Notes: generated by a model not told the origin, from the sequence alone. A stretch of DNA of 64,000 nucleotides from a virus (IMGVR_UViG_3300029305_001134:1-64000); one strand, 5' to 3'. Shown: positions 10,438 to 63,791, counted from the stretch's first letter. Numbers and translations: made by a program.

Positions 10438-10992
10438 ATGGAATATTACAACGAAGATTATCTCATGCATTATGGCGTCCTCGGAATGAAATGGGGAGTT
10501 CGTAGAGCATTGCATAAATCCGAACGTAATAAAGACTTGAATATTAAAGCCTTAGATTACGATAAGAAATCAGCAAAGTATACTCGCAAATCCGAAAAGA
10601 TTCATGCTGAAGAAGATATCGGTAAAGCGAATAAAAAAGCTAAGAAAGCTGCTACTTATGAAGTTAGAGCTGCAAAGAAACAGAAGAAAGCGGAAAAGTC
10701 CGACAACGAATTGTCTCGTGCAATGTATACAAAGAAAGCTGAAAACTATAAGTATAAAGCGGCTAAAGCACAGCTGGAAGCCAACCGAATCGCAAAGACA
10801 GAAGGTTATAGCGGTAAGGCTATGAAATATTCCGTTAAATCAGATAAGGTGGCGATTAAGGCTGCTAAAGTCAGAAAGAAAATGGCGACCAACGAAGCGT
10901 ATATCGAAAAGATGAAACAGCGAGTATCCGAAATGTCTCCAGAAGATAGACGCGCAGGAAAAGAATACATCGATAGATTGATGAGTGCTTAG
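10438..10992 (+). CDS. LxH-YG-x-GMKWG family protein, very basic (Lys/Ala-rich)
   Basis: YLMHYGVLGMKWGVRR N-terminus. Confidence 0.8.
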   Translation: MEYYNEDYLMHYGVLGMKWGVRRALHKSERNKDLNIKALDYDKKSAKYTRKSEKIHAEEDIGKANKKAKKAATYEVRAAKKQKKAEKSDNELSRAMYTKKAENYKYKAAKAQLEANRIAKTEGYSGKAMKYSVKSDKVAIKAAKVRKKMATNEAYIEKMKQRVSEMSPEDRRAGKEYIDRLMSA

Positions 10993-36512: not shown

Positions 36513-36551
36513 TTCAAAATGGAATTCGCGACCTATACGAGTCCTTTTATG

Positions 36552-36698
36552 AGAGAGAATTAGGAATGACTCCAATGACGATATTAAATAAAGATATGAA
36601 AAAATTAATATTATCAGGAGACGCTGGCCTACTAGACGGTCTTTATCAGATACAGTCTAATTGAGCGGGTTCGAGTCCTACAGATACGCATTCTCTCT
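36552..36698 (+). ncRNA. candidate small RNA with a terminal stem and a T-loop-like element
   Basis: AGAGAGAAT (36552) pairs with ATTCTCTCT (36690) followed by a T-run; GGTTCGAGTCC at 36668. Confidence 0.45.
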
Positions 36699-36791
36699 TA
36701 TTTTTCTATTTGAACGAAGTGAAAACAGGTGAACTTTAGTTGAATTCGCGACCTATACATACCCTATTATGAGATAAAAACCAAAAAGGAG

Positions 36792-37010
36792 ATGTTTAAC
36801 ATGGAAGTTAAAACTAAAGGCTATGATATTGAGCAAGTAGTTGATGTAATTGAAATGTTATCATATTCACAAGGTTTTTACGGACGATTATTAGAAGAGA
36901 TCCTATATATTGAGGAGAACGAACCAGCTAAGTACGAAGTATTTAAGCAAATTATCGAGAAACAGGAGTTTGAAGACCCTGTGGACGTAGTGCTATTCTT
37001 CGAAGGCTAG
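36792..37010 (+). CDS. small acidic hypothetical protein (cassette)
   Basis: motif + RBS + terminator; start may be 36801. Confidence 0.75.
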   Translation: MFNMEVKTKGYDIEQVVDVIEMLSYSQGFYGRLLEEILYIEENEPAKYEVFKQIIEKQEFEDPVDVVLFFEG

Positions 37011-37082
37011 GACGAGTCCTTAACAAGGGCTCTTCATTTTCTCTCGCGACCGAAACATTTCTTTTATGAGGAGGTGATATGA

Positions 37083-37334
37083 ATGGTATGGTATAAATTA
37101 AAACAGGACTTTTCTAGAAAAGAAGCGAAACTAATTTTAAAGTATATGCAAGAAATTATTGACGAGTACGGCTATGTAACTCTCGCCGATTTTTATGATC
37201 TCGTAGATGTTAGAAGAGTTGTCTACACGGATAATAAAAAACGTTGGCGTTCGTTAAATGGGGCTAGAGTATCGTTGTTTAAAGGTAAATATGGGTATAG
37301 AATAAAATTACCGGCTTTTGAGGAATTGTCATGA
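37083..37334 (+). CDS. hypothetical protein, paralog of 52079 and 53394
   Basis: IIDEYGYVTLADFYDL motif. Confidence 0.8.
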   Translation: MVWYKLKQDFSRKEAKLILKYMQEIIDEYGYVTLADFYDLVDVRRVVYTDNKKRWRSLNGARVSLFKGKYGYRIKLPAFEELS

Positions 37335-37459
37335 CGTAAATCAATATCATATTGCACTAAAACAATAAGGGCTTAGGAGAAATCTTAGGCTCTTCTTTTT
37401 CTTTTCGCGCTTCCTACACTTCCTTTTATGGGAAAACATTTCGAAAGGGGACAATCAAA

Positions 37460-37780
37460 ATGGCTAGATTTAATGCGAAAGAAGAAACATGGTTGAAAGT
37501 AGAAGTCTTAGGAAAAGAAGGTTTATTTATAGATTTACGAATCGATAGAAAGACTGTTCCAGAAGGCTATCATATGTACGAGGTAAGACACTCTGATGAT
37601 GATTGGGGTGAACCTGTAGAGATAGGCGAATGGATTATGGTAAATTTCTTCGGCACGTTATTGATGAAAGAACCATTCGAATTAGAGAAATCTACTGCGG
37701 TCAATAATGCTTATTTGTGGTTAGAGAATCCAGAAGATTTTGGGTATCTTGGAGAAACTGTAGAATTTGGAGAGAGTTAA
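37460..37780 (+). CDS. LPD28-like domain protein
   Basis: LRIDRKTVPEGYHMYEVRHSDD..P..I...VNFFGTLL pattern. Confidence 0.7.
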   Translation: MARFNAKEETWLKVEVLGKEGLFIDLRIDRKTVPEGYHMYEVRHSDDDWGEPVEIGEWIMVNFFGTLLMKEPFELEKSTAVNNAYLWLENPEDFGYLGETVEFGES

Positions 37781-37851
37781 ACATGCTCTCTTCTTTTCGC
37801 GTAAATTACTGATCCTCTTATAGAAAAACCAAAATAAAAGGAGGAAATATT

Positions 37852-38079
37852 ATGTTTGAAAATAAAATTATCAAAGGAGAGTATGCGAGTAGATATATCG
37901 CAAGCTGGATTCGAGTAGGTGGACAACTCAGATATGGTAAGGATGAAGATGATTTTAACGAATGGTTATTATCATTAGGTCTTACCGAAGATGAGGCGTA
38001 CTACATTACGAATTTAGCACGATGTGGTAAACTCGAAATGCAGACACACGCACAGATGTTTTTAAAGAATAGACGTTAA
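37852..38079 (+). CDS. hypothetical protein (cassette)
   Basis: RBS AGGAGG; 75 aa. Confidence 0.75.
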   Translation: MFENKIIKGEYASRYIASWIRVGGQLRYGKDEDDFNEWLLSLGLTEDEAYYITNLARCGKLEMQTHAQMFLKNRR

Positions 38080-38184
38080 TAGAATTCAAAATGGTTTGCG
38101 AGGGAGGTCTACAAAGGCTTCTCTTTTCTTTTTCGCTAAATAAACAATCTATATTATAGAAAAAACAATCAAGGAGGAACGATT

Positions 38185-38346
38185 ATGAAAGTAGTAGTTG
38201 ACAATTTTAGTTATAAGGGTAAATACTATGATAAATTTGAGTGTGAATTACCAGTATCGGATTTAAATAGTATTAGCAGTAAAGAATTATCGGCTATGTT
38301 TACCGAACAAATCGATATTTTTGAAGGAAGAAAGGAGTCTCACTAA
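38185..38346 (+). CDS. 53-aa hypothetical protein (not in the ORF track)
   Basis: MKVVVDNFSYKGKYY...; RBS AAGGAGG; motif at 38132. Confidence 0.7.
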   Translation: MKVVVDNFSYKGKYYDKFECELPVSDLNSISSKELSAMFTEQIDIFEGRKESH

Positions 38347-38464
38347 TGGGGCTTCTTTTATTTTTCTGCTTGAATGAAACGAGAACAGACGAATTGTACG
38401 GATGAGCTATTTCGCGCCTCTTACACGTCCTCTTATGAAGACAAATAGCGAAAGGATGATTGCT

Positions 38465-38689
38465 ATGTGTAAAGTGTATGAATTCCCACAACAAACTGAG
38501 CTTCCAAAAGAAGAGGCGGAATTACTCGAAATTTTAGGCGAGGCGTATGTGAAAGCATTATACAACGCATTAGTCAAAATGGTGGGTGGTGGAGCTTCTC
38601 GTGATGAAATGGAAGAGGTTAATGGGCTAGTACATCGAGCATTTTTGAAAGGTATGAACAAAGCGCTAGAGGAATATGAGAAGTCCTGA
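38465..38689 (+). CDS. hypothetical protein (cassette)
   Basis: MCKVYEFPQ...; RBS AAAGGA; motif at 38411. Confidence 0.7.
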   Translation: MCKVYEFPQQTELPKEEAELLEILGEAYVKALYNALVKMVGGGASRDEMEEVNGLVHRAFLKGMNKALEEYEKS

Positions 38690-38748
38690 ACAAGGGCTTT
38701 TCTTTTTTCGCTAAATAAACACTTCGTTTTATGAGGAGGTGATTTGGA

Positions 38749-38928
38749 ATGATACAAACTGATTTCGTAAAACTCAATAACAAAGACGAAAGATTCAGAT
38801 TTTCAACAAAACTGGTATGCGTTATAAAACCGATTATTCGAGTAGTATTAACACCGATATTCTTGTTGATTAGATTATATTGTTGGGTTTGGGATTACGA
38901 TTATTACGAGATATTTTTCAAACGCTAA
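38749..38928 (+). CDS. 59-aa hydrophobic protein (not in the ORF track)
   Basis: MIQTDFVKL...; RBS GAGGAGGTG. Confidence 0.65.
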   Translation: MIQTDFVKLNNKDERFRFSTKLVCVIKPIIRVVLTPIFLLIRLYCWVWDYDYYEIFFKR

Positions 38929-38982
38929 AAACAATAGAACTGGGCTCATAACGAGTCCTTTTCTTTTTCTCCCCCAACCCAC

Positions 38983-39130
38983 TGGACTTTTTACCTTAAA
39001 CAACCGTGTGCTGTCGAGTGAGCACCCTGATGATAAAGTCATTTCTCCGATTATATTTACTGTTGGACTTTTGACCTTAAACAACCGAGGGCTTCTCTGT
39101 ACGCACTCTGTTCATAAAGTCGTTTCTCCA
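38983..39130. repeat. two tandem 56-bp att-like sites (81-bp period)
   Basis: GACTTT-N44-AAAGTC at 38985-39040 and 39066-39121; shared ACCTTAAACAACCG; divergent centres; just 3' of the recombinase. Confidence 0.75.
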
Positions 39131-39171
39131 ACATAAGAAAAACCCCGCCGTAGCAAGGTTTCTCAGGGTTG

Positions 39172-41022
39172 TTATATTTTCAGATGCATCACGATTTCCA
39201 TGTCATCTTTGTCTGTTTTACGTCTTGTGAGCTTAGTTGTCTTCGAATATATGATTCTGTTTATGATTGATTTCAATGACTCATTCTTTTGTGGTATACT
39301 CATATTGTCGTATTCATTTAAGCAGTCTTCCAATTTGGGGATTGCTTTTTTATATCTAATTAACTTTTCTTCCTCTTCGGTATTTTCGAATTTGGCCAGT
39401 TTACGTTCAATCGAATCAATTTCTTTTTCGATGTCGTTCTTCAACTCGATATAATCATCGTATGATATTTCTTCACGATTTCGAGTACGTAATAAATTCT
39501 TCCGTTCAGTTTTTAATCCAGTCAATTTCTTCTCTAATTTCAAAATGGTTTTGTGCGTATCGTCTCTTTCTTTAATAATTTCCTCTTCATAGTTATCTAC
39601 ATAATATTTAAAATCTTTTAATTCTTCTTTTAGCTGCCTTAATACTTCTTTCTCTAATTTCGGAAGCACGCAAGACACCATATCGCAGTTTTGGTTACTA
39701 CACATGAACGTATCTGCTCCAGGTGGTTTCTCCTCATATGTTAGTAATTGCTTATCGAATTCATCAGTCTCGATATCTAGGAAGAATTTTAACTCGAACC
39801 ATTTTTCGCTGAATAAATCCGTGTAATGTAGCTTCTCAGGATCAGGTCTAAACCAATCATTTATCTTACTACGAGATACTCCGAGAAAATCTGCTATCTG
39901 TTGACTGGTAACACCCTTCTTAGCTCTAGCTTCTCGAATTAATTGGTTGATAGCCACTTTATTAACTTTATATTTTCGTACCCGTTTAATTTCTTTCTTT
40001 CTACGATTCTGTACCCGAACGAGTGAGTAACCGCATTTCTTACAGAACACCAAACCAGCCAAAGGATTCTTTAGTTCTCGATTCCAGCCAGTTTTGTCAG
40101 GCTTATTTTTCCGCAGTCTCTCCTGTGCCATATCCCATTTCTCTTTACTGATAATACCTTCTTGTCTACCTCGAACTAACATATATTCTTCTGGGCTTGG
40201 TCTAAACTTGTGTAACTCTCCGTTTATAAGTTTCTTTACTACTGGTCTTTTACCCCAAGCGAGATCGCCGTAATAAACTTCATTCTTTAAAATATGTCGG
40301 ACCATTTCGTCATTCCATAGTTCAGCTATACGAGGTTTTAATTCGTGCTTGTTCAAATAATTCGCTGTCTCCAGAGTAGATAAACCATCATCAACAAAAG
40401 CTGAGAACAGAGCTTCAACGATTGGTGCTTCATTCTGGTCTTTAATTAACATGAATCCTCTATCGAGTGGCTTACGAGCATAACCAAAAGGAGGAGTGCT
40501 ACCAATCCATTTACCTTCACGTAATGATAATTGTCTACCACGACCTAATATTTCTTTTGTATATTCCAAATATTTATTACCTTGTAGTAATTGAGCTTCG
40601 AATATTTCTTTATCAAATTTGTTATTCAAATCATATGCTTTGGTTATTGTGGCGATTATCGTATTCGTATATTTCAGAATTTGTACAACACGACCACAGT
40701 CTAACATTTCACCACGAGATATACGCTGAGGTTCAATCACGAGTAATACAGAACCTTCTTCCTTCTCTAATCGATGAAACACCTTCTTAATCTCAACACG
40801 ATCGTCTATTGTCTCGCCAGAAACAACTTCACGATAGATATTTTCTTCAGGTATTTTCTCTCCGAATGTTTGTATAGCATATTCTTGAAGAATCGTTTCA
40901 TGTCGGGATAATACTTCTTCAACACTTTCTTTACCTTCCGCACGAGATTTCCTCAGATAGATAATTACTCGTCGTACACTTATTTTTCCTAATTCGTATG
41001 GTGTTATGATATTTAAGCTCAT
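39172..41022 (-). CDS. large serine recombinase (integrase) with an XRE-type HTH inserted in the zinc ribbon
   Basis: YLRKSR catalytic motif, EVVSGE, RISRG, PPFGY, CKKCG; RBS AAAGGAG supports the MSLNII start at 41022. Confidence 0.92.
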   Translation of the reverse strand: MSLNIITPYELGKISVRRVIIYLRKSRAEGKESVEEVLSRHETILQEYAIQTFGEKIPEENIYREVVSGETIDDRVEIKKVFHRLEKEEGSVLLVIEPQRISRGEMLDCGRVVQILKYTNTIIATITKAYDLNNKFDKEIFEAQLLQGNKYLEYTKEILGRGRQLSLREGKWIGSTPPFGYARKPLDRGFMLIKDQNEAPIVEALFSAFVDDGLSTLETANYLNKHELKPRIAELWNDEMVRHILKNEVYYGDLAWGKRPVVKKLINGELHKFRPSPEEYMLVRGRQEGIISKEKWDMAQERLRKNKPDKTGWNRELKNPLAGLVFCKKCGYSLVRVQNRRKKEIKRVRKYKVNKVAINQLIREARAKKGVTSQQIADFLGVSRSKINDWFRPDPEKLHYTDLFSEKWFELKFFLDIETDEFDKQLLTYEEKPPGADTFMCSNQNCDMVSCVLPKLEKEVLRQLKEELKDFKYYVDNYEEEIIKERDDTHKTILKLEKKLTGLKTERKNLLRTRNREEISYDDYIELKNDIEKEIDSIERKLAKFENTEEEEKLIRYKKAIPKLEDCLNEYDNMSIPQKNESLKSIINRIIYSKTTKLTRRKTDKDDMEIVMHLKI

Positions 41023-41130
41023 GGAAAAATTTACTCCTTTTCTTAGATGACTTTTTATATTACGCTTCAAATAGTAAACTTTCATAATTTGCTGAATACT
41101 TACATATCTTTCATCGAGGTGGTTAAAAAC

Positions 41131-41283
41131 ATGAAAATTACAGTTGTCAGAAACGAACCAACGAAGGAAGTCCTTCAAAATATTTATGACGTAATGAACA
41201 GAAATATTAAAAATCCAAAATGTTTTTATACGTCAGAAGAAACTAAAAAATTAAAGAAGGACAAATCCAACGTGTGGCTGTAA
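41131..41283 (+). CDS. 50-aa protein divergent from the integrase
   Basis: RBS GAGGTGG; MKITVVRNEPTKE... Confidence 0.6.
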   Translation: MKITVVRNEPTKEVLQNIYDVMNRNIKNPKCFYTSEETKKLKKDKSNVWL

Positions 41284-41293
41284 TGGCTGCGCG

Positions 41294-41677
41294 TTATTTT
41301 TTAATTTGCTCTCTGACTGATAAGTATAATTTCATGATATTTTCGTATAGGTCTTGTTTCTCTTCTAATGATACTTTGTCATTTTCAAATATTAGTCTAG
41401 CTCGTTCTAATAAATCTACAGTTTCTATTTCATCGGTTTTACATCCAAGTGTCTCGATTGAAACGTTAAAATAATCTGCGAGTATCTTTATTTGATGGAT
41501 ATTTAAGTTCCTTTTACCTGTCTCTAGATTTGATACTTGTCCTCTCGATAACGGTCTTCCTGTTGCTCTATTTCCTAAAACTATTCCTAACTCATCTTGT
41601 GTTATATTTCTCATTTTTCTTAATTGTCTCACCCGACCACCTATTTCTTTTGTATCGAGCGTCTTTTGAATTTGCAT
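41294..41677 (-). CDS. XRE-family HTH repressor without a peptidase domain
   Basis: IGGRVRQLRKMRNITQDELG...VSNLETG...LADYFNVS. Confidence 0.88.
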   Translation of the reverse strand: MQIQKTLDTKEIGGRVRQLRKMRNITQDELGIVLGNRATGRPLSRGQVSNLETGKRNLNIHQIKILADYFNVSIETLGCKTDEIETVDLLERARLIFENDKVSLEEKQDLYENIMKLYLSVREQIKK

Positions 41678-41773
41678 CGGATATCACTTTCCTTTCTTAT
41701 AATAAAGTACATGTTTCATTCTACACAAAAATATTCAAATAGCAAACTTTTTAGTTCGAAATTTAAAAACTTA

Positions 41774-41833
41774 TTTACAAATTCTAAAAATTATATTAAG
41801 ATAGCAATGTAAACACGTATGGAACATACGTTC
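41774..41833 (+). promoter_or_regulatory. sigmaA-like promoter plus Firmicute LexA (Cheo) box
   Basis: TTTACA(41774)-17 bp-TAAGAT(41797); GAAC-ATAC-GTTC at 41822-41833. Confidence 0.7.
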
Positions 41834-41861
41834 TAATCTTAATCGATAGGAGTGAACCGCT

Positions 41862-42038
41862 GTGGATGGTGTAGCGAAGGTTATTGACGAATTGGGATTG
41901 ATGATTTTACAGAAAGATATTGAGCTTGAATTAAAACAAAATGAGATCGATAAATTAAAAAGAAAGATAGAAATGATTGAACAATACTTAGACATGTACG
42001 AGGATAATTGCAACTACGATTTCGCATTAAAACGATAA
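41862..42038 (+). CDS. 58-aa coiled-coil protein under the LexA box, candidate antirepressor
   Basis: RBS AGGAG, GTG start; MDGVAKVIDELGLMILQKDIELELKQNEIDKLKRKIE... Confidence 0.65.
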   Translation: MDGVAKVIDELGLMILQKDIELELKQNEIDKLKRKIEMIEQYLDMYEDNCNYDFALKR

Positions 42039-42132
42039 TACATATACATACTTAATCTAATCATTCCCTTGCCCCGGTACTTATGGTTAGATACTTTTTT
42101 AAACATAGTGCGTCAAATAGTAAACTAATGAG

Positions 42133-42357
42133 GTGAAAAGTTTGCATAGAAGAAAGAAATTAGTGTTTTGGAGAATAGAACGACGAATGAGACAGAGGGA
42201 TTTGTGTGAGAGGTTAGGAATCACTACAGCTCATTACTCGAATATCGAACGAGGTATATCAGATCCGTCTTATGTTTTATTAATGAAATTTCGAGAGTTA
42301 TACGATGGTGATGTTTTAGATTTGTTTGAAAAGGAGAATTCAAAATGGCAACAGTAA
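42133..42357 (+). CDS. Cro-like XRE HTH regulator
   Basis: RQRDLCERLGITTAHYSNIERG. Confidence 0.82.
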   Translation: MKSLHRRKKLVFWRIERRMRQRDLCERLGITTAHYSNIERGISDPSYVLLMKFRELYDGDVLDLFEKENSKWQQ

Positions 42358-42764
42358 TACGTGCGGAAATTTCAGAAAAGAATAAATATTGGATAGATAA
42401 ACATAGACATTACGAGTTAAAACATTTCTGCCTACAATATCCCGAATGGAAAAGAGCTTATATGGAATTTGATAATCCAAGTATCCCTTTATCAATGATG
42501 GAAAGAGTTCCTACAAGTAATCTACCAGGCGATCCTACTGCTAAACGAGCGATGATGAAATCATATTATGGTGAACGAATTAAATTACTCGAACAGATTG
42601 CTTTAGAAGCTGATAACTGTTTACATAATTATATTTTAAAAGCTGTCACCGAAGGATTGTCTTATACATACTTAAACACTCGATTAGGGATTCCTTGTAG
42701 TAGAGATTTATATTACGATCGCTATAGGAAATTCTTCTGGTTACTTAGTAAGGCGCGAGGATAA
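42345..42764 (+). CDS. putative transcriptional regulator (ArpU/RinA-like)
   Basis: GDPTAKRA...C-terminal HTH-like GIPCSRDLYYDRYRKFFWLL. Confidence 0.55.
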   Translation: MATVIRAEISEKNKYWIDKHRHYELKHFCLQYPEWKRAYMEFDNPSIPLSMMERVPTSNLPGDPTAKRAMMKSYYGERIKLLEQIALEADNCLHNYILKAVTEGLSYTYLNTRLGIPCSRDLYYDRYRKFFWLLSKARG

Positions 42765-42804
42765 CATCTCCTTTTATGAAAATATATTTAAAGGAGGAAT
42801 ACTT

Positions 42805-43056
42805 ATGTTAGTATTAGGATTTTTGGGATATTTAGTAATTGGATACGCGAGCTTATTCGTGGTTGTGATGATCCACATAATTAAAGCTGAAAAAGCAGGT
42901 TATGATTGTCTAAATTGGTGGGGTAAACATACCGCCAATATTGGAAATCAAATCGATGACAACTTTATCATTGGATTGATTATCTGGCCGGTACGATTAA
43001 TGCAATTCATTATTGATATTCCGGAATATTATGAACAGTATGGCTTTAAATATTAA
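42805..43056 (+). CDS. small membrane protein
   Basis: two hydrophobic stretches; RBS AAGGAGG. Confidence 0.7.
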   Translation: MLVLGFLGYLVIGYASLFVVVMIHIIKAEKAGYDCLNWWGKHTANIGNQIDDNFIIGLIIWPVRLMQFIIDIPEYYEQYGFKY

Positions 43057-43159
43057 GGAGGACTCACATCGAGTCTTCTTTTTTTGTTATTCGCGAAATT
43101 TACAACATCTATTATGGAAAATACATTACAAATTTATATATTATAGGAGGAAATATTTT

Positions 43160-43438
43160 ATGAAAAAAGTATTAATTATGATTGGGGGAGTATGTGGTGT
43201 GATTGGCAATTTTATCGCAACTGAAAACAAATATTACGATGAAGTAGCAAAAGCTGAAGAAGCTGTGGCTAGCTTTAACGAAGTAGAAGTAATCGGTGCG
43301 TATGAAAAGGCTAGTCTCGAAACAGACTGGAATAATGGTACATACGGAATCACAGTACGATTATATACAGCAGATGGAACTATGATCTCATCTGTAGTGT
43401 ATGAAGATGTGAATGATTTTATCGAGAGGGAGTTCTAG
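43160..43438 (+). CDS. secreted or membrane-anchored small protein
   Basis: MKKVLIMIGGVCG signal-like N-terminus; RBS AGGAGG. Confidence 0.7.
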   Translation: MKKVLIMIGGVCGVIGNFIATENKYYDEVAKAEEAVASFNEVEVIGAYEKASLETDWNNGTYGITVRLYTADGTMISSVVYEDVNDFIEREF

Positions 43439-43520
43439 GAACTCTTCTCTTTTTTTTTCGCTATTTTTACACAGTGTATTATAGAAAATACAAAATCATT
43501 AATTGAAAGGAGATATAACT

Positions 43521-43598
43521 ATGATGAATTTAGACAAATTATTCGACGAGCTTATGCAAGAATTCGAGGAAATGATTGAGCATTTTAAAAACAGTTGA
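43521..43598 (+). CDS. 25-aa acidic microprotein
   Basis: MMNLDKLFDELMQEFEEMIEHFKNS; RBS AAAGGAG; own motif and terminator. Confidence 0.6.
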   Translation: MMNLDKLFDELMQEFEEMIEHFKNS

Positions 43599-43701
43599 GA
43601 GGCTTCGGCTTCTCTTTTTCTTTAATTGTACATTCGCGCGAAAAACATACCCCTTTATGAAAAACTATTTAATTAATGAATTCAAAATGGAGGTATGAAT
43701 T

Positions 43702-43950
43702 ATGTTACGCAAAATGATTGAACAGATTATTGAGAAGAGACAAGCAGTTAGAAAGGCATTGGTGAAGGAAACTTTTGGGGATATGCATACATTAGTAGGT
43801 ATGTCGGACGAGGAGTTTAAATTCATGAAAGCGGTTCTGGAATTAGAAAACATGACTGATGATCTGTTGGGAACAGTAGGTGTAGAAATCGAGAAACTTC
43901 AAAATGATGTTGATAAATTAAATAAGGAAATGTTAGAGAGGGCTAAATAA
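43702..43950 (+). CDS. coiled-coil hypothetical protein
   Basis: RBS GGAGGT; cassette structure. Confidence 0.75.
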   Translation: MLRKMIEQIIEKRQAVRKALVKETFGDMHTLVGMSDEEFKFMKAVLELENMTDDLLGTVGVEIEKLQNDVDKLNKEMLERAK

Positions 43951-44026
43951 GCCTTTCTCTTTTCTTTTTCGCGAATTAAACACAGTATATTATGAGAAAA
44001 ATTTATATATTTAGGAGGAAATCAAA

Positions 44027-44158
44027 ATGAAAAAAGTTGGAGTATTTATCAAAAAGCACATGAAGAAATTTATCGGAGGCGCTATTGGGTTAGTATTAAC
44101 AATTGTATCATTAGGTTTATACCAAGTGTATAAAAGTAAACAAGAAGAGGAGGCTTAG
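44027..44158 (+). CDS. 43-aa single-TM microprotein
   Basis: MKKVGVFIKKHMKKFIGGAIGLVLTIVSLGLY...; RBS AGGAGG. Confidence 0.65.
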   Translation: MKKVGVFIKKHMKKFIGGAIGLVLTIVSLGLYQVYKSKQEEEA

Positions 44159-44298
44159 GCTTCTTCTTTTTATTTTCGAACATATTTCTAATCTAGATTA
44201 AAACCACCTCTAACCTAGAATAGAAAAACCGTACGTAGGTGACTGAGATCAATGCTACATTCGTAGTGTGATAAATATTTTTAAGAAAGGAGAATGCT

Positions 44299-44517
44299 AT
44301 GGAAATTATTATCGCTATTATTTTTGGAGGTGTGCTTGGATTCGTATTAGGTGTATTAATCGCTCGTAAAACCAAACCAGACGGGATATTACGAATCGAT
44401 CATACCAACCCAGAGAAAGATACCTATCGATTTGAAATTGACGAGATTGATAAGTTATCGAATAAAAGATACATACGATTGAAAGTAGATAACAACGCCA
44501 ATCTTTCGCAAGATTAA
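44299..44517 (+). CDS. single-TM protein
   Basis: N-terminal TM; GILRID motif. Confidence 0.72.
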   Translation: MEIIIAIIFGGVLGFVLGVLIARKTKPDGILRIDHTNPEKDTYRFEIDEIDKLSNKRYIRLKVDNNANLSQD

Positions 44518-44560
44518 CATGGTCTTTTATGAAGTATTATATTTAAAGGAGGGCTTTATT

Positions 44561-44977
44561 ATGCCAGAAAAGAAATCTTTAAAACAGTTGATGGAAGAGG
44601 TAGCAGCTGAAAAATTGCAATATGTGTTAGAACATGAACAGGGGGATGACGATGCAGAAGAAGCATTCGATCAGGCCATTACAGCTGTGAAAGTTTATAA
44701 TGACATGGTTAAGATTGACGATGCTCATGATGAAGAACTTAAACGTCAGGAGATTGAGAAAGACAAACAAGAGGCGGATAAGAAATTCAAAATGAGTGAA
44801 TCGACAAAAGAAAAGATCATGAAAGGAATTGAACTCGGAGCAGTTGTAATCGTTACACCTGTAATCGGGTATTTCTCGAACAAGAATCTCGCTAAGTTCT
44901 TATGCAAAGCTGAGCAGTTTGAGACCTTTACAACAACTGCCGGAAGATCTTTGGGCAAGATGTTTAAGTTCAAATAA
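44561..44977 (+). CDS. hypothetical protein with a C-terminal hydrophobic segment
   Basis: RBS AAGGAGG before MPEKKS. Confidence 0.72.
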   Translation: MPEKKSLKQLMEEVAAEKLQYVLEHEQGDDDAEEAFDQAITAVKVYNDMVKIDDAHDEELKRQEIEKDKQEADKKFKMSESTKEKIMKGIELGAVVIVTPVIGYFSNKNLAKFLCKAEQFETFTTTAGRSLGKMFKFK

Positions 44978-45036
44978 TGAGTAATACTCGTAGGGAGGGC
45001 TATGGAAACATAGTCTTCTCTTTTTCTTTTATCTCA

Positions 45037-45191
45037 TACTATTCGTAGTAGTAACAGGTCATTTTATTTTTTTTTATTTAATATTTATATGTAATAACAT
45101 TAACTTTTGTTAATAAATATAAACTATTGTTAATGTAAGTATATAAGTAATTAAAAGAAATATTTTTTTTTACGAATAGTAGTAGCAGGTC
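45037..45191. other. very AT-rich tract bracketed by inverted and direct repeats, candidate replication origin
   Basis: about 10 G/C in 110 bp (45061-45170); IR TACTATTCGTA/TACGAATAGTA; DR TAGTAGTARCAGGTC. Confidence 0.45.
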
Positions 45192-45246
45192 TCACGAATT
45201 TTACACGCTCCTTTATGAGAATTAATTTCAAAGGAGGATTTATATT

Positions 45247-45426
45247 ATGAGTAAAAGAACAAGAATTGATGCGAGTAGAGAGGCTAGACTTTGGTTGAAA
45301 GAAGTTTTATTACCAGCGGGAGCGTTGATAGTAACAGCTATTTCAATTCCAGAGGTTAGGAATACTGGCGAGAAGTTACTTACGAAGAGTAAAGACTTTA
45401 TTGAATCGAAATTCAAAAGAAACTAA
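45247..45426 (+). CDS. 59-aa microprotein
   Basis: MSKRTRIDASREARLW...; RBS AAGGAGG. Confidence 0.68.
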   Translation: MSKRTRIDASREARLWLKEVLLPAGALIVTAISIPEVRNTGEKLLTKSKDFIESKFKRN

Positions 45427-45496
45427 GAGATTAGGGGCTTAACGGCTCCTTTTCTTTTTCTACGAATGATACGCGAAATATACAACGAATATTATA

Positions 45497-45772
45497 GAAA
45501 GAAAGCATATCGAGAGAGGGAGACCGGCTCTACATTCAGTAGTGAAGAGTACGAACTATACAAACCGAGGCTCGAATCGAAAGATTGACAGTAATGGTCC
45601 AGAGGACGAATGGTCGTAGTGAATATCGGAGGCTGATATGCTATATATACTGATAACAATGTCGGAGATTTTGATATTATAAGTATCGACGGCAGGCAAA
45701 TGGTGCGCTGACTTGGGAGCAGTCTTTATGATCGATCCCTGGGAAAATTGGAACATTGTGTTTTATTTTTTC
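45497..45772 (+). ncRNA. candidate structured ncRNA (~270 nt)
   Basis: follows the motif at 45470; no RBS or ORF; AGCATATC/GATATGCT stem; AATC-GAAA-GATT tetraloop. Confidence 0.55.
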
Positions 45773-45821
45773 TTTTTCGCATAATATACAGCCTCTCTTA
45801 TAGAAAAGATTATAGGAGGAT

Positions 45822-46031
45822 ATGATTATGGGTATCAGAGGATTGAAATGGATTAAATGTAAGAACGGACAGAAACCAAATCGTGAGGTCGAACACAAAA
45901 TACAAGACGAATCTCGCGTGAGGCAGATGGTTGAAACTGAATTGTATCTATTGAGTTGGGAGGTACGTAAAATCATGGATGACATGAGATTGGAAAGAAC
46001 AGTATTAAGCAAGTTACATAAGGCTAGCTAA
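45822..46031 (+). CDS. hypothetical protein (cassette)
   Basis: RBS AGGAG. Confidence 0.68.
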   Translation: MIMGIRGLKWIKCKNGQKPNREVEHKIQDESRVRQMVETELYLLSWEVRKIMDDMRLERTVLSKLHKAS

Positions 46032-46129
46032 TGCTGGTCTTTTTTTTTTCTTCATATTCGTCCACTCGCGTTAATTACATCGAATATTATAGAAACATAT
46101 TAAATAAAATTACAATGGAGGATAAATAT

Positions 46130-46345
46130 ATGTTTAACGGTAAAGAGAGAAAGACTTTGTTGAAAGAGCTTGAAAGCAAGATTGAGGTATTACATTCGAA
46201 CGTGATACTTATGGAACACGATTTTATGGCACTCAAAGATGGAGGTAGTGAATTATTTATTAAAGACTTTGAGTATCGTAAGGAAATGATTCGTAAGAAT
46301 ATGATCGACACGAATGTATTACTCACAAGACTGAAGGAACTGTAA
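46130..46345 (+). CDS. hypothetical coiled-coil protein
   Basis: RBS GGAGG before MFNGKERK. Confidence 0.7.
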   Translation: MFNGKERKTLLKELESKIEVLHSNVILMEHDFMALKDGGSELFIKDFEYRKEMIRKNMIDTNVLLTRLKEL

Positions 46346-46469
46346 CAGGTTCTTTCTCTTTTTTTTCTTTTCGAACATAGTGAGAACAGGTGAAACTTTA
46401 GTTGAACGTTCGCGTAAAAATCATATCCTCTAATGAAACTAAAAGTTTAAGAAAATGGAGGATTGGAAT

Positions 46470-46685
46470 ATGAGCGAAACTAATAGAAATGGACAGATTA
46501 TTGACTTCTTGAACAAATGGGATGAAATGCTTAAAGCGGCTAATGAAATCGAAGGATTTAAATGGGATTTCAAAGTCCGCATTACGAGTAATAATTCCCT
46601 GATTGAAGATAGAGTCAGAACTATCAATGGAATTAATGAATCGTTTAGTAGGAATCATATGACTTGGACGAGTAGTAACAACTAA
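46470..46685 (+). CDS. hypothetical protein (cassette)
   Basis: RBS GGAGG before MSETN. Confidence 0.65.
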   Translation: MSETNRNGQIIDFLNKWDEMLKAANEIEGFKWDFKVRITSNNSLIEDRVRTINGINESFSRNHMTWTSSNN

Positions 46686-46735
46686 AGAGGGCTTCGGCTT
46701 CTCTTTTATTTTATTTTGTAAGGAGTTGACACAAA

Positions 46736-47095
46736 TTGCGTTATCACTATGAAAAACCAGATCTATATCATTCTATGTATGGTGAAAATTACGAATGCGA
46801 TCATCCAGTTTACGATAGATGTACTTTATTCAAAATAGGTAAGAAAGGTTTAGCCGTAATTCAACAACGTTACGACCCAGAAACTAAAAATACATACTGG
46901 AACGAAATAGACCCCTGGCTTACTGACTCGATATATTTACATAAGAAATTTAAAGAATATTTTGATAAACGCTCAGGCGAATGCACGAATGGAATATATC
47001 CGACAGTTACGATTCGTCAATTAATGTGGAGCTTACGAATGAAACCAATATCTAAAGAACGTTGGGAGACTTGTTTCGATAGACGAGAAATTTGA
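46736..47095 (+). CDS. hypothetical protein
   Basis: TTG start after AAGGAG; 119 aa. Confidence 0.72.
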   Translation: MRYHYEKPDLYHSMYGENYECDHPVYDRCTLFKIGKKGLAVIQQRYDPETKNTYWNEIDPWLTDSIYLHKKFKEYFDKRSGECTNGIYPTVTIRQLMWSLRMKPISKERWETCFDRREI

Positions 47096-47146
47096 CGCGA
47101 TGAAAACATACTCCTTTATGAAATATTAAATTAGGAGGTAACTTAT

Positions 47147-47365
47147 ATGAAGAAAGCATTATTATTTGTAACAGGAGCAGGTATTGGAGCAGTGACAGGA
47201 TTTGTAGGAGCTGTAGTATGCTTACTCATTGGAGTTGCAGGAGAGGATAAAGTACTCTATGAAGACGACAAAATGAGAATTAGAGCAGCAACTGATAGTA
47301 CTGAAGCTGAAACAGGTTTTGCCGTGGTTACATATAAAAAGCAAACAACAGAAACCAACGAATAA
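47147..47365 (+). CDS. single-TM protein
   Basis: Gly-rich TM GAGIGAVTGFVG. Confidence 0.72.
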   Translation: MKKALLFVTGAGIGAVTGFVGAVVCLLIGVAGEDKVLYEDDKMRIRAATDSTEAETGFAVVTYKKQTTETNE

Positions 47366-47514
47366 TATTCGGGGATTGAGGATTCATTACGAGTCCTCTT
47401 TCTTTCTGCTCGAATCCCATGAGAACAGGTGAAACTTTAGTTGAGCATTCGCGAAAAATACAGGACCTATTATAGAAAATAACGGAAAATAAAATATGAA
47501 AGGAGAAAATTATC

Positions 47515-47601
47515 ATGATGGAATTATTGAAAGTATTTGTTAACGTATGGTTTTTAGGCGGAGACATGTATAACAATAATGATTATGGTGTTAGATTCTA
47601 A
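47515..47601 (+). CDS. 28-aa microprotein
   Basis: MMELLKVFVNVWFLGGDMYNNNDYGVRF; RBS AAAGGAG. Confidence 0.55.
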   Translation: MMELLKVFVNVWFLGGDMYNNNDYGVRF

Positions 47602-47723
47602 TAAGAATTTGGCGTTATTAATCGAAAAGGCGAGTCTTAACTAAGGCTCTTCCTTTTACTTTCCATCATGATTCGCGATATTTACACGCTCCTTTATGAA
47701 ATAATATTTAAGGAGGATAAAAT

Positions 47724-47873
47724 ATGATTATGTTTATGATTTTATTATTAATAGCAGGAGTTATACTGGCAATGTTTAGTGTGGTGGCAATCTTACTAAT
47801 CGAGCCAATTGTATGTTTCCTGATTATCTATGGAATCTACAGATTGATCAAATTTATTAGAAAGAAACATTAA
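47724..47873 (+). CDS. 49-aa very hydrophobic membrane microprotein
   Basis: RBS AAGGAGG; basic C-terminus. Confidence 0.65.
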   Translation: MIMFMILLLIAGVILAMFSVVAILLIEPIVCFLIIYGIYRLIKFIRKKH

Positions 47874-47990
47874 CGAGAGGGGCTTAGGCTTCTCTTTTCT
47901 ATTTAAACGAAGTGAGAACAGGTGAAACTTTAGTTGAACATTCGCGACTAATACAGCCTCTTTTGTGAAGAGAAAAGGAGGTAATTAGAC

Positions 47991-48086
47991 ATGAAAATCA
48001 TAATGAATATACTAGTGACGATATTGGCGTTAGGGTTATTAGGATTGGCGTTGATTATCGCGTGTATATGCGTATTAGCATTTTAA
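47991..48086 (+). CDS. 31-aa TM microprotein
   Basis: RBS AAGGAGGT. Confidence 0.6.
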   Translation: MKIIMNILVTILALGLLGLALIIACICVLAF

Positions 48087-48214
48087 GATTATCGAATGGA
48101 CAAATCGGATTGGGAGGATTGAATTATGATCCTCTTAGTCTTCATATTCGCGAAGAATACATACCCTTTAATGAAAGATAAATCAAAATAAAACTAATTT
48201 AGGAGGAATTTATT

Positions 48215-48409
48215 ATGTTGGAAATGATTGTATTAGGATTAACAATCGTAATTGGAATGGTGTTAGCTAGTTTAGCAATGTTGGTGATAACATTCAAAAT
48301 TATGCTTAGCAAGAAATGGATGTTATGGTTTGTTAAGAAATACATGAAAATGATTAATGAAATCACCGAAGAAGTGACAGAAGATTTATTAAAAGTTGAG
48401 GCTGAGTAA
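48215..48409 (+). CDS. single-TM protein
   Basis: RBS AGGAGG. Confidence 0.7.
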   Translation: MLEMIVLGLTIVIGMVLASLAMLVITFKIMLSKKWMLWFVKKYMKMINEITEEVTEDLLKVEAE

Positions 48410-48468
48410 AACCAGTCTCTTTCTTTTTTCATCAAAACGGATTCGCGAAATTTACAACGGATATTATG

Positions 48469-48618
48469 AAAGAAAACTAATATTCGAAAGGGCAGTGAAG
48501 TTGGAGGGCCGAAGATTGTCGGTACCGCATCGGGCACGTCGCTGAGGTGAAAACCTGACAAATGAGCGTGAGCAAAATAACGGCGTCCTTCGAGTAGAAC
48601 AATCCTAGAGTTTTCTTT
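48469..48618 (+). ncRNA. candidate structured ncRNA (~150 nt)
   Basis: terminal stem AAAGAAAACT/AGTTTTCTTT; TATTCGAAAGGGC/GTCCTTCGAGTA; AGGT-GAAA-ACCT; no ORF. Confidence 0.65.
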
Positions 48619-48678
48619 TACTTTCGCGAAATTTACAAGCTCCATTATAGGAAATACTATAAAAGGAGGATAAAGGAT

Positions 48679-48762
48679 ATGGCATTTATGATTATACCAG
48701 CATTGGTTATGACATTATGTGTATACGAATCCGTAATGGGTTGTATTACAAATTTAAGATAG
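48679..48762 (+). CDS. 27-aa hydrophobic microprotein
   Basis: RBS AGGAGG; own motif and terminator. Confidence 0.55.
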   Translation: MAFMIIPALVMTLCVYESVMGCITNLR

Positions 48763-48827
48763 GGACAAATTATAAGTCTCTATTTTTCTTTTAATTCCAT
48801 ATTCGCGAAATTTACAAGTCCTTTTAT

Positions 48828-48922
48828 GAGAGAAAGATAAGGTAACTATTACCTAGAATGATCGCATTTTAAGAGCTGAGAAAAATGGGAATTGGCGGTA
48901 GCTTCATTCGTATCATTCTCTT
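48828..48922 (+). ncRNA. candidate four-way-junction RNA (~95 nt)
   Basis: closing stem GAGAGAAAGATA/TATCATTCTCTT plus three internal hairpins. Confidence 0.55.
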
Positions 48923-48968
48923 TTTGTTCTTCCTACTTCACAAATCCAACCGAAAGGTGTTGTCACAA

Positions 48969-49754
48969 ATGAATGGCCTAGTTAATAGCGTCAAAATATT
49001 TGGTAAACGTAATGCATCAACAATTCTTACAGTGGTAGGAGGCGTTGGCGTGTTAATTACTTCTATCATGGCAGTGAAAGCGACACCTAAAGCTATGACG
49101 ATATTAGAACAAGCGAAGGATGAGAAAGGTGAAGAGTTAACTAAATTTGAGAAATTCAAAATGGCGGGTCCTAGTTATATTCCAGCTACAATCGTAGGTA
49201 TTGGGACGGTTACTTGTATATTCGGAGCTAACGTACTAAATAAACGTCAACAAGCAGCTCTAGTTAGTGCGTATACATTAGTAGATAGCTCCTACAAACA
49301 ATATCGCCATAAATTAGTTGAATTATACGGTAAAGATACACATAATGAAATCGTGGACGCCATCGCCGTAGAAAAAGCTGAAGAAGTTGGGATTTATGCT
49401 GAAAGTCTATGTGCGAATACTTGTCTAACTGACGAAGAATCTTGCGGAGAACCAGTTTTGTTCTATGACGAATTCGGTGGAAGATATTTTGAGTCGACTA
49501 TCGAACAAGTTATCGCGGCTGAGTATCATACAAATCGCAATTTTACACTACGTGGGTACGCAGTATTAAACGAACTATACGAATTTCTCGGTTTAGAACC
49601 TACTGATTATGGTAATACAGTTGGCTGGGCTGTAGATAGCGACCTATATTGGATCGATTTCAATCATAGGAAGACTGTACTTGAAGATGGACTCGAATGT
49701 TATATTCTAGAGTCTTACTGGTCTCCAAGTGCTGACTTTTTAGAATATTATTAA
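48969..49754 (+). CDS. DUF6353-like protein, paralog 1
   Basis: ILTVVGGVGV..AVKATPKA...LNELYEFLGL..VGW; RBS AAAGGTG before MNGLV. Confidence 0.75.
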   Translation: MNGLVNSVKIFGKRNASTILTVVGGVGVLITSIMAVKATPKAMTILEQAKDEKGEELTKFEKFKMAGPSYIPATIVGIGTVTCIFGANVLNKRQQAALVSAYTLVDSSYKQYRHKLVELYGKDTHNEIVDAIAVEKAEEVGIYAESLCANTCLTDEESCGEPVLFYDEFGGRYFESTIEQVIAAEYHTNRNFTLRGYAVLNELYEFLGLEPTDYGNTVGWAVDSDLYWIDFNHRKTVLEDGLECYILESYWSPSADFLEYY

Positions 49755-49853
49755 TTACCGCACACAGGTGACAAAAATCGGTGATAAATTGTTAATGAAT
49801 TCGCGGTGAAAACAAGCCGTATTATGAGAAAACTAATTTAGGAGGAATTTATA

Positions 49854-50024
49854 ATGAAAAACTTTAAATTTAATGGCGGATTGTTTGGTTTTATTATGAT
49901 TATTGGAGCTGCATTAGGCGCGGCTGCACAAGAAATGACCATGCAATCGATCGAGAAAAAACAAAAAGAACAGGATGAACGTATCGCTAAATTGGAAGGT
50001 AAAAACGTAGGGGAGTCTCAGTAA
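49854..50024 (+). CDS. 56-aa TM plus coiled-coil microprotein
   Basis: RBS AGGAGG. Confidence 0.65.
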   Translation: MKNFKFNGGLFGFIMIIGAALGAAAQEMTMQSIEKKQKEQDERIAKLEGKNVGESQ

Positions 50025-50080
50025 TGAGGCTCTTTTATTTATTTTTATAAGGTTACACACATTAAGGAGGAGAATTAAAA

Positions 50081-50866
50081 ATGAATATGTCAAACGTAAC
50101 TAAAGTATTAAAAACAATCGGAACTGGATTAAATAAACACAAGCCAGCGATTCTTACAGGCATGGGTATTGCTGCGGGTGTAACATCCACAGTATTAGCA
50201 GTTAAAGCCACACCAGATGCTATGGAATCTATCAAAATGGCAGAAGAAGAAAAAGGCGAAAAATTGACTAAAATGGAAGTTGTAAAAGTAACTTGGAAAC
50301 ATTATATCCCAGCGATTGCTACAGGGGTTACAGCGGGTGTATGTGTTGTTGGTGCTAATGCTGTTCATAATAAACGTAGTGCCGCTTTAGCAACTGCATG
50401 TCAGATTTCTGCGACAGCCCTTAACGAATACAAAGAGAAAACTATCGAGACTGTAGGTGAAGAAGCCGAGAAACAGATTCGTGAGAAAATTGTTAAGGAT
50501 AGAAAAGATAAAGTTGAGAAAAAAACAGCGAGTGAGAATCATACTGTATTCGTTTCGGAAGATGGCGAATATACAATTCGTGAACCTTATTCCAATCAGA
50601 CTTTTAGATCATCCGAAGAAAAAGTAATAAAAATCATGAATAATCTCAACGGACGAATGATCGATGGAGCTGAAATGTATATGTCCGTAAATGAATTACT
50701 CGATGAATTCGGTTTGGACCATTACGAGTTGGGTGATGATATCGGATGGACCGTAAATGATCGAATTGATTTAATGATTGATGTAGAGAAATCAAAAACA
50801 GGCAAACCACGAGCTGTTATCAGATATTTGAACCCAGCAAAACATGATTTCAGAAAATTACACTAA
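50081..50866 (+). CDS. DUF6353-like protein, paralog 2
   Basis: ILTGMGIAAG..AVKATPDA...VNELLDEFGL..IGW. Confidence 0.75.
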   Translation: MNMSNVTKVLKTIGTGLNKHKPAILTGMGIAAGVTSTVLAVKATPDAMESIKMAEEEKGEKLTKMEVVKVTWKHYIPAIATGVTAGVCVVGANAVHNKRSAALATACQISATALNEYKEKTIETVGEEAEKQIREKIVKDRKDKVEKKTASENHTVFVSEDGEYTIREPYSNQTFRSSEEKVIKIMNNLNGRMIDGAEMYMSVNELLDEFGLDHYELGDDIGWTVNDRIDLMIDVEKSKTGKPRAVIRYLNPAKHDFRKLH

Positions 50867-50937
50867 TTCGCGAAAAATACAAGAACTATTATGAGATATT
50901 ATTAATCTAATTTTTATACAAAGAAAGGAATATAATT

Positions 50938-61365: not shown

Positions 61366-61366
61366 G

Positions 61367-63502: not shown

Positions 63503-63745
63503 ATGAGAAGATTTATTGTATATTTAGTTCGTAAGAGATTAGGAGTTAAGAAGTTCCAGAACTTTAGATTCACTAATCAGAAAGATAAAGCCGTGTATTA
63601 CTTCACCAACTACGAATTAAAGAAAGTCGAATATATTGGCGAGGGTGACAATATGCAGGAACGAGTTTCCTATTCAAACGCGAGTCTTAATTGGCTTATT
63701 AACGATGACTGCAAAGTCGAAATCGTAGAATCAACTCGCGAGTAA
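63503..63745 (+). CDS. hypothetical protein
   Basis: RBS GAGGAG. Confidence 0.68.
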   Translation: MRRFIVYLVRKRLGVKKFQNFRFTNQKDKAVYYFTNYELKKVEYIGEGDNMQERVSYSNASLNWLINDDCKVEIVESTRE

Positions 63746-63762
63746 AACACGTTATATTATGA
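63735..63762 (+). promoter_or_regulatory. isolated copy of the phage promoter-like motif
   Basis: CTCGCG-AGTAAA-ACA-CGTTATA-TTATGA. Confidence 0.75.
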
Positions 63763-63791
63763 GAGATAACTAAATATCTGGAGGGATTGTC

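Follow-up and report, generated by a model that had tools for sequence, protein, structure and literature searches.

A repeated ~32-bp element in a temperate phage genome is a probable promoter of the phage's own two-barrel RNA polymerase

Which RNA polymerase transcribes the small gene cassettes of the phage genome IMGVR_UViG_3300029305_001134, which are headed by copies of one sequence element? We studied positions 1-64000 of this genome (the window, 64,000 nucleotides); the virus record is 100,079 bp long and has a completeness rating of 100%. The phage is temperate, via a serine recombinase, and has a siphovirus-type genome. A first-pass annotation of the window had reported 30 copies of the element TTCGCG-N6-ACA-N7-TTAT, all on the + strand, 29 in a cassette array and one at 63735. 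Sequence comparison and structure prediction lead us to propose, with a probability of about two in three, that the copies are ~32-bp promoters serving a two-barrel RNA polymerase of the phage itself, an enzyme with built-in helix-turn-helix (HTH) domains, transcription starting right after TTAT.

With at most one mismatch, TTCGCG-N6-ACA-N7-TTAT matches the window 25 times, always on the + strand, versus 0.15 matches expected and at most two in 100 shuffles. In the whole 100,079-bp genome, the same pattern gives 30 forward matches, no reverse match and none for a backwards control. A position weight matrix (PWM; positions 0-33), a scan that the first-pass annotation had suggested, detected 39 sites in the whole genome, all on the + strand and all scoring at least 12.7 bits; no site was found in reverse and none scored 8-12 bits, which leaves a clean score gap. 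Together with a variant at 37043, whose spacer is 1 nt shorter, the genome contains 40 copies: 29 in 36525-50894 (variant included), one at 63735, and ten past the window, also detected by PWM on the + strand (67269, 73217, 75275, 81220, 84429, 87306, 88923, 92184, 92543 and 94986). The first-pass count was thus exactly reproduced. Conservation is continuous over ~32 bp (wTTCGCG, aaawwt, ACA, nnnyCTw, TTAT, RRRARA), and the motif holds ~35 bits of information versus ~12 needed to pick 40 sites in this genome (~3-fold). The 36-kb structural block contains no copy.

The copies lie ahead of genes and behind terminators. A hairpin followed by a T-tract is predicted at most 90 nt upstream of 18 of the 29 array copies, mostly 3-22 nt away, in agreement with the initial description of copies sitting mostly just after a terminator and before a ribosome-binding site and a microprotein gene. 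The array has 27 terminator-like sites versus 7.9 expected. Leaders, counted from the purine behind TTAT up to the ATG, usually measure 24-45 nt and contain a Shine-Dalgarno sequence, and the genes behind the copies mostly encode 25-140 aa. Separately, a second repeat of ~35 nt (GTGAGAACAGGTGAAACTTTAGTTGAAC) was observed between terminator and motif at five promoters (36694-36738, 38354-38398, 46355-46399, 47394-47438 and 47887-47931); it includes TGAAAC, 16 nt ahead of the CGCG of the motif.

As far as its sequence can tell, the motif is not a sigma-70 promoter, which upholds the first-pass reading. The sole TATAAT-like hexamer is TwTTAT, located 14 bp from TTCGCG, a distance outside the 16-18 bp of sigma-70 spacing. 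Position 22, the critical second base of this hexamer (the -11 A of sigma-A), is A in 15, T in 11 and C in 4 of the 30 sites. Among the motif-bearing relatives described below, it is T in 14/14 sites and A in none in Faecalibacterium phage FP_oengus, and A in Gordonia phage Tanis, Streptomyces phage Scap1 and Lactococcus phage 1706. Sigma-70-like sites are not enriched in the array (56 versus 65.6 expected). The TTTACA found inside the motif was tried as a -35 box and rejected, no conserved -10 hexamer being present 17 bp downstream.

These data bear on the idea that the motif combines an ordinary host sigma-A promoter with an operator for the prophage repressor. In SPbeta, a 15-bp element (SPBRE) is repeated in about ten early promoter regions and bound by the master repressor MrpR (PMC10516654). 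This precedent, the temperate nature of the phage and the partly palindromic TTCGCGAA fit such an arrangement; we nevertheless regard it as very improbable, as there is no -35/-10 pair at workable spacing and no excess of sigma-70-like sites, and as the motif keeps strictly to one strand and to a set phase with the gene start. It is furthermore present in 1706, Scap1 and Tanis, which in the stretches read have no annotated integrase and no gene for gp139 (a candidate regulator presented below). One 1706 gene is labelled 'putative repressor'.

The predicted transcription start (+1) must coincide with the purine that follows TTAT or be no more than 2 nt away from it. At five copies (37043, 38707, 73217, 81220 and 84429), the Shine-Dalgarno sequence starts 2-3 nt past TTAT, and two of these copies, 37043 and 38707, lie directly behind terminators, so that no other source of mRNA exists there. 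In FP_oengus, a tRNA-like gene starts 3 nt past the TTAT of one copy (Rfam tRNA model 47.9 bits, full length). A start ~7 nt past TTAT would remove the Shine-Dalgarno sequence at the five sites and the 5' end of the FP_oengus tRNA-like gene, which argues for a +1 at or next to the purine. The tRNA-like gene itself (L034:2936-3005) has a shortened anticodon loop and ARAGORN cannot name its anticodon. The first-pass annotation had offered two clues to the same start. The Shine-Dalgarno overlap is confirmed at 37043 and 38707. The other clue, the 5' stem in RNA cassettes, is a weak one: the outer stem forms between the purine-rich start and the pyrimidine-rich tail of the terminator and is not kept in relatives. 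The structured RNA at 48468-48622 (+) is itself conserved, as judged by structure comparison with two IMG/VR relatives, where it lies equally far from the motif: its closing stem is long, and a hairpin capped by GAAA shows compensatory changes. No Rfam family covers it, and a search of the array with Rfam gave no match, whether at the gathering score or with a limit of E<=1.

A candidate reader is encoded beyond the window, at genome positions 96660-99740 (+), as the first-pass annotation had anticipated in proposing a dedicated polymerase from outside the window. This 1026-aa protein, as modelled, is a single-chain two-barrel RNA polymerase. It matches PHROG 4291 ('RNA-dependent RNA polymerase') with E=0 and carries the catalytic DxDGD loop as GADFDGD (residues 552-558), which is invariant in 59 homologues; the Pfam RdRP model matches weakly on this loop, and the same Pfam family has matches in B. 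subtilis. HTH matches are found near residues 112-137 and 986-1024. The AlphaFold model (pLDDT 84.2, pTM 0.72) has as best Foldseek matches in the PDB QDE-1 (E 2e-8), Thermus phage P32 gp64, P74 gp62 and plant RDR2, all with probability 1.00; the largest subunits of cellular Pol II, III and IV are found lower in the list, at non-significant E-values. Searches of PDB sequences with the polymerase sequence and profile matched HTH domains only. The family comprises at least 8,000 homologues and, in a separate search, 2,203 cluster representatives. In one IMG/VR relative of 77 kb, the polymerase gene is present twice, at ~0.3-3.2 kb and at 64.1-66.8 kb, the two copies being diverged.

The first-pass annotation had given a YonO-like enzyme as an example. 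The polymerase does belong to the same two-barrel superfamily; similarity to SPbeta YonO at the BLAST level was not found. A tblastn search of 50,697 phage records gave 250 matches; Bacillus is not among the ten organism names listed for them (two more being unnamed) and no Bacillus record is among the matches listed, YonO itself not being compared directly. The genome was also searched for a sigma-like gene: Sigma70_r2 gave no match, and matches to Sigma70_r4_2 were confined to the polymerase's HTH domains and one small open reading frame (ORF). A search with PF00940 (T7-type RNA polymerase) gave no match in the genome, and its controls gave no match either. The only unassigned ORFs long enough for a T7-type enzyme encode 806 and 783 aa (1275-3695 and 4506-6857, between polymerase operon and terminase) and have no Pfam or PHROG match; both ORFs are absent downstream of the polymerase gene in the stretch read of the closest relative.

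The motif and the polymerase travel together. By gene order and protein similarity, the phage groups with FP_oengus, 1706 and a large group of actinophages. IMG/VR relatives with a polymerase 52-71% identical to this one carry 25, 20, 15, 10 and 2 copies (at most one mismatch), all forward. More distant polymerases are accompanied by related motifs (the slash marks the predicted start): 14 copies of ACGCGAAAAAwnCA-N5-CTTTAT/GGA in FP_oengus (46% identity, 49% GC), 7 of TTyCrCA-N5-TTACA-N4-CTATAGT/AGAAAG in 1706 (36% identity), 4 of TCGCAAnTTTTACA-N5-TATAGT/GAGACC in Scap1 (40% identity, 61% GC) and 12 of TCGCA-N5-TACACGTCCTATAAT/GAGACC in Tanis (41.5% identity). One degenerate pattern recovers all of these motifs, with no match in reverse; in the four named phages, every copy is on the gene strand. 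The same architecture, with co-varying letters, was thus present in every polymerase-bearing lineage examined. That the signal is kept across hosts of two phyla and in phage DNA of 34-61% GC argues for a phage-encoded reader. In the reverse test, the polymerase is encoded in 10/12 IMG/VR contigs with several motif copies, and is absent in 5/8 contigs with a single hit. The two motif-rich contigs without polymerase are linear records, 90-92% complete, which also miss the neighbouring exonuclease; they are probably cut at the polymerase end. In this phage, FP_oengus and Scap1, a copy precedes the operon encoding endonuclease, exonuclease and polymerase.

With +1 at the purine, TTCGCG would occupy -26 to -21, wACA -15 to -12, yCTwTTAT -8 to -1 and the purine-rich RRRARA +1 to +6. 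The polymerase's HTH modules would recognize the two upstream blocks, which are separated by one helical turn, and melting would occur at TTAT. The host sigma-A polymerase would fire only the lysogeny switch promoters near 41.7 kb; in this region, a sigma-70-like promoter for the rightward immediate-early operon (TTTACA-17-TAAGAT, 41774..41802, +) is recognized by consensus match only. All other units would rely on the phage enzyme, including the endonuclease-exonuclease-polymerase operon, which would run without terminator into the structural genes. The two ends of the record are contiguous in a relative, hence the polymerase operon leads straight into the structural genes. A hairpin scan of the + strand from 92986 to 16151, across the genome junction, found no terminator except a leader hairpin after the copy at 94986. 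This hairpin with its U-tract (95012-95100, z -3.1) lies in the leader of the endonuclease-exonuclease-polymerase-late operon, a similar one follows the matching promoter in FP_oengus and Tanis, and it may be an attenuator for the polymerase and late genes.

Several observations weigh against our proposal. Cassettes end in hairpin and U-tract terminators, which are known signals of bacterial polymerases. The block preceding the start is TATAAT or TATAGT, a good sigma-A -10, in Tanis, Scap1 and 1706, and the host may use the motif in these phages. The polymerase is not alone in accompanying the motif: all lineages also have an 88-aa protein, DUF6353 proteins and a 198-aa protein. YonO, a distant relative in SPbeta, has one late promoter, not dozens (PMC5467207). 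Public runs containing the phage sequence are six faecal DNA metagenomes, with no RNA run. Finally, a motif copy (94986) also heads the polymerase operon, as in FP_oengus and Scap1, so that the initial enzyme must have another source. This might be read-through, a weak host promoter or polymerase brought in by the virion; ahead of the operon, the sigma-A consensus gave weak matches only, none convincing.

In a rival explanation, the motif would be read by the host RNA polymerase together with a phage specificity factor, a sigma replacement or an appropriator of the MotA/AsiA type, the two-barrel enzyme transcribing something else, such as the late operon only, which is the case for YonO. Taking TwTTAT as the -10 places TTCGCG at -32 to -27, like the MotA box of T4 middle promoters. 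Bacterial-type intrinsic terminators at cassette ends point the same way, as do two candidate factors. The first is gp139 (phrog_11237; 42345..42764, +), product of the third gene of the immediate-early operon, which the first-pass annotation had named as an activator that might read the motif; its nearest named Atlas clusters (DUF722, DUF1492 and antiterminator-Q-like) are families of the phage late-regulator or antiterminator type, which is a lead only. The second is the small conserved protein of 88 aa encoded directly after the polymerase gene (99744-100010) in all five lineages, with 33-41% identity and no family match; this protein could also be an accessory subunit. Against such a factor, a start 7 nt past TTAT cuts off the Shine-Dalgarno sequence at five sites and shortens the FP_oengus tRNA-like gene, the critical -11 A is present in half of the sites here and in none in FP_oengus, and the genome has no sigma region 2. 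We therefore consider host polymerase with a specificity factor unlikely.

As a general reader of the motif, gp139 is disfavoured, contrary to the earlier suggestion. It was found only in temperate relatives, FP_oengus having a 41% identical copy in the same place, and a profile of 28 homologues (E<=10) gave no match in the lytic, motif-bearing 1706, Scap1 and Tanis, covering parts only of the 1706 and Tanis genomes. It has no Pfam or NCBIfam match, and its single-sequence model is poor (pLDDT 63), with no fold match. We suggest that gp139 may be a device of temperate members for restarting the cycle on induction.

Delivery of the polymerase with the virion is a speculation prompted by its N-terminus. 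This region is disordered in the model and carries a leader, L-x-H-[YW]-G (genome 96660-96800), invariant in all orthologues aligned. Only three other proteins share the leader, in the form ..ELxH-YG..GMKWG.RR; all are DUF7211 proteins of the head module (7525-8640, 10438-10992 and 11005-11652). The shared leader is ~9 residues long, and the DUF7211 model does not score on the polymerase leader except weakly in Scap1 (E 0.12). L-x-H is also found at domain borders (residues 130-134, 152-156, 256-260, 291-295 and 314-318) of the capsid polyprotein encoded at 12928-14811, a 627-aa fusion of a prohead protease (Peptidase_S78), a twice-repeated scaffold-like segment and the major capsid protein. 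The polymerase leader might thus, speculatively, be a signal for capsid targeting or protease cleavage, the enzyme being loaded in the capsid and delivered with the DNA.

The first-pass annotation had also suggested that the promoter-gene-terminator units could be shuffling modules of the PeSL type, and comparison with relatives bears this out: the units are exchange modules between related phages. Most cassette genes are unique to this phage; what distant relatives have in common with it is limited to a backbone of gp139, a 119-aa gene and DUF6353 genes, whose order is conserved. The 69-aa gene at 36801 is on the other side of the recombinase gene in relatives. Base-level comparison was made with two close relatives, whose gp139 is 91% and 95% identical; three others (G001, G002 and G011) were left out of the boundary analysis as too diverged. 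Homology blocks start exactly at motif position 1 (36525, 36745, 38411 and 48802) and end at or inside the next copy (37040, 37069, 38130, 38708, 43091 and 43969). Block ends fall within -3 to +32 of a motif start in 16/28 cases versus 7.2% expected (binomial 7e-12, the ends not being fully independent), and five more lie 32-40 nt upstream of a motif, in the terminator region. In one relative (L168), the 38132 cassette is missing, leaving a clean motif-to-motif junction, and the 36525 and 36745 cassettes are in reversed order.

Such boundaries could mean that the repeats serve mobile gene cassettes mainly as signals for recombination or insertion and are not promoters, and some copies indeed abut or overlap the upstream stop codon. 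We give this explanation little credence: copies lie at a fixed 24-45 nt before the Shine-Dalgarno sequence and ATG, just past terminators, and they head conserved core operons at equivalent positions in distant lineages. With promoters repeated in this way, recombination at them explains the block boundaries without a dedicated recombinase. If the copies are promoters of the phage enzyme, the repetition of promoter and terminator around each small gene would allow recombination between copies to move, add or delete single-gene cassettes.

The individual copies in the window, all on the + strand, were scored by PWM unless another basis is given. The array opens with 36525..36556 (pattern scan and PWM, 35.6 bits), followed by a 29-aa ORF or RNA cassette, and 36745..36776 (40.1 bits), with a 69-aa gene, a cassette located elsewhere in relatives. 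The variant 37043..37073, recognized by its shorter spacer and not among the PWM sites, has its Shine-Dalgarno sequence 2 nt past TTAT and precedes an 83-aa gene; 37404..37435 a 106-aa ORF (37460-37780); 37796..37827 a 75-aa gene; 38132..38163 a 53-aa gene (PWM and comparison; this is the cassette missing in L168); and 38411..38442 a 74-aa gene (PWM and comparison with relatives). At 38707..38738, the Shine-Dalgarno GGAGG lies 3 nt past TTAT, ahead of a 59-aa gene. The array is then split in two by the large serine recombinase gene (39172-41178, -), next to which lie an HTH_3 repressor-like gene (41294-41677, -) and the immediate-early operon.

The second part of the array begins with a weaker copy, 42752..42783 (22.3 bits), which overlaps the end of the gp139 gene and precedes an 83-aa gene. 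It continues with 43090..43121 (92-aa gene), 43457..43488 (25-aa ORF), 43633..43664 (82-aa gene), 43968..43999 (43-aa ORF), 44505..44536 (138-aa gene) and another weaker copy, 45191..45222 (25.4 bits, 59-aa gene). The copy 45470..45501 is followed by ~280 nt without called ORF, 45776..45807 by a 69-aa gene, 46065..46096 by a 71-aa gene, and the weakest of all, 46409..46440 (12.7 bits), by another 71-aa gene. The copy 47094..47125 overlaps the upstream stop codon (72-aa gene); then come 47448..47479 (28-aa ORF), 47672..47703 (49-aa gene), 47941..47972 with TTGT for TTAT (31-aa ORF) and 48147..48178 with TAAT (64-aa gene). The structured RNA is preceded by 48442..48473. The last array copies are 48623..48654 (27-aa ORF), 48802..48833, which has a 141-nt leader and heads a DUF6353-type 261-aa gene, 49800..49831 (56-aa gene) and 50867..50898, which abuts the upstream stop codon and heads a long operon into the replication genes. 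The copy 63735..63766 (pattern scan and PWM) is within the replication region.

As for the remainder of the genome, positions 1-36 kb contain head, tail and lysis genes, among which the large terminase (8651-10417), the protease-scaffold-capsid fusion mentioned above and a 2455-aa tape measure. Downstream of the array, a long series of + strand genes extends to 100 kb and includes a split DNA polymerase of SPbeta/FP_oengus type (PHROG 4210). This polymerase is in two ORFs, 57957-60725 and 61358-62704, separated by a 211-aa ORF (60730-61365) that resembles Scap1 HNH endonuclease genes. Next to the 3' end of the serine recombinase gene, 38983-39129 holds two in-register 66-nt repeats, 79% identical, with an 81-nt period, which are candidate attachment (att) sites. 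A 300-nt intergenic region (genome 93320-93620) contains five ACATGGTCATAATAATT-like iterons and is a possible origin or packaging site. In phage 1706, the 449-nt gap ahead of the polymerase gene holds iterons of another set. Megablast of the array against the 50,697 phage records gave no match.

The enzyme family was already known as a prediction: an RNA polymerase flanked by HTH domains was predicted from sequence in an actinophage supercluster, 1706 and FP_oengus (Koert et al., 2021 preprint, bioRxiv 10.1101/842583). A term search of that text found neither 'promoter' nor 'repeat'. Literature searches with the motif letters returned unrelated papers only, and we found no phage paper describing the motif or a promoter of this polymerase family. 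The present polymerase is a member of PHROG 4291, with 36-46% identity to those of named phages, the DFDGD loop and HTH domains at both ends, and PHROG 4291 phages have in common the gene order endonuclease, exonuclease, polymerase, small protein. The phage described here differs in being larger (100 kb), temperate via a serine recombinase, and provided with ~40 motif copies.

The two-barrel polymerases gp64 and gp96 of Thermus phage P23-45 were assigned their own promoter motifs, AT-rich and GC-rich, by mapping of transcription start sites, analysis of -30 to +1 upstream of mapped starts and co-occurrence among relatives (PMC10770324). These are likewise single-chain phage enzymes with which a motif travels, and P32 gp64 and P74 gp62 are among the best fold matches of ours. 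There is no similarity at the sequence level, and start sites were mapped experimentally there and are predicted from sequence here. We know of no built-in terminal HTH domains in the P23-45 enzymes. The resemblance to YonO lies in the single-chain two-barrel polymerase, the large temperate Firmicutes phage and a gene just upstream of the late structural operon. The sole link is the weak Pfam RdRP model, with no BLAST-level similarity found, and YonO has one mapped late promoter; the 2017 YonO paper leaves promoter recognition open (PMC5467207).

In promoter layout, the array recalls the T7 group, and phage polymerases with private promoters are known in T7, N4 and P23-45. T7 promoters are long, near-identical and continuous to the start, with a TATA-like block at -4 to -1 and a purine-rich initial transcript, and they head hairpin-ended units. 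The array motif is similarly information-rich up to the start, with a TATA-like block, a purine-rich start and many copies heading short terminator-ended units. However, T7 RNA polymerase is Pol I-like and the present enzyme two-barrel, and the motif reaches -26 here versus -17 in T7. PeSL elements of T4-type phages consist of a promoter and a stem-loop flanking small genes in a hyperplastic region and are shuffling points; their promoters are host sigma-70 early promoters of lytic myoviruses. Here too, promoter and terminator repeats around small genes mark exchange points, but the promoter is not sigma-70-like and the genome is that of a temperate phage of siphovirus type.

A broader picture can be sketched, which we consider doubtful as a whole. 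A sigma-free polymerase, perhaps loaded in the capsid via its L-x-H-Y-G leader, would read TTCGCG and ACA with its own HTH domains and start after TTAT; the prophage would be silent largely for want of polymerase and not through a repressor at 40 promoters; and the promoter-terminator units would be a recombination scaffold for exchangeable microprotein and small-RNA cassettes.

The polymerase family is spread over thousands of gut, dairy and soil phages. A 32-bp signal found from Firmicutes phages to actinophages offers a handle on sigma-free promoter recognition by a minimal, single-chain relative of cellular RNA polymerase, and the cultivable members (1706, Gordonia and Streptomyces phages, FP_oengus) make the idea directly testable. 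If true, it would provide a polymerase and promoter as a new orthogonal pair. The cassette data also reveal how small accessory genes are turned over in such phages.

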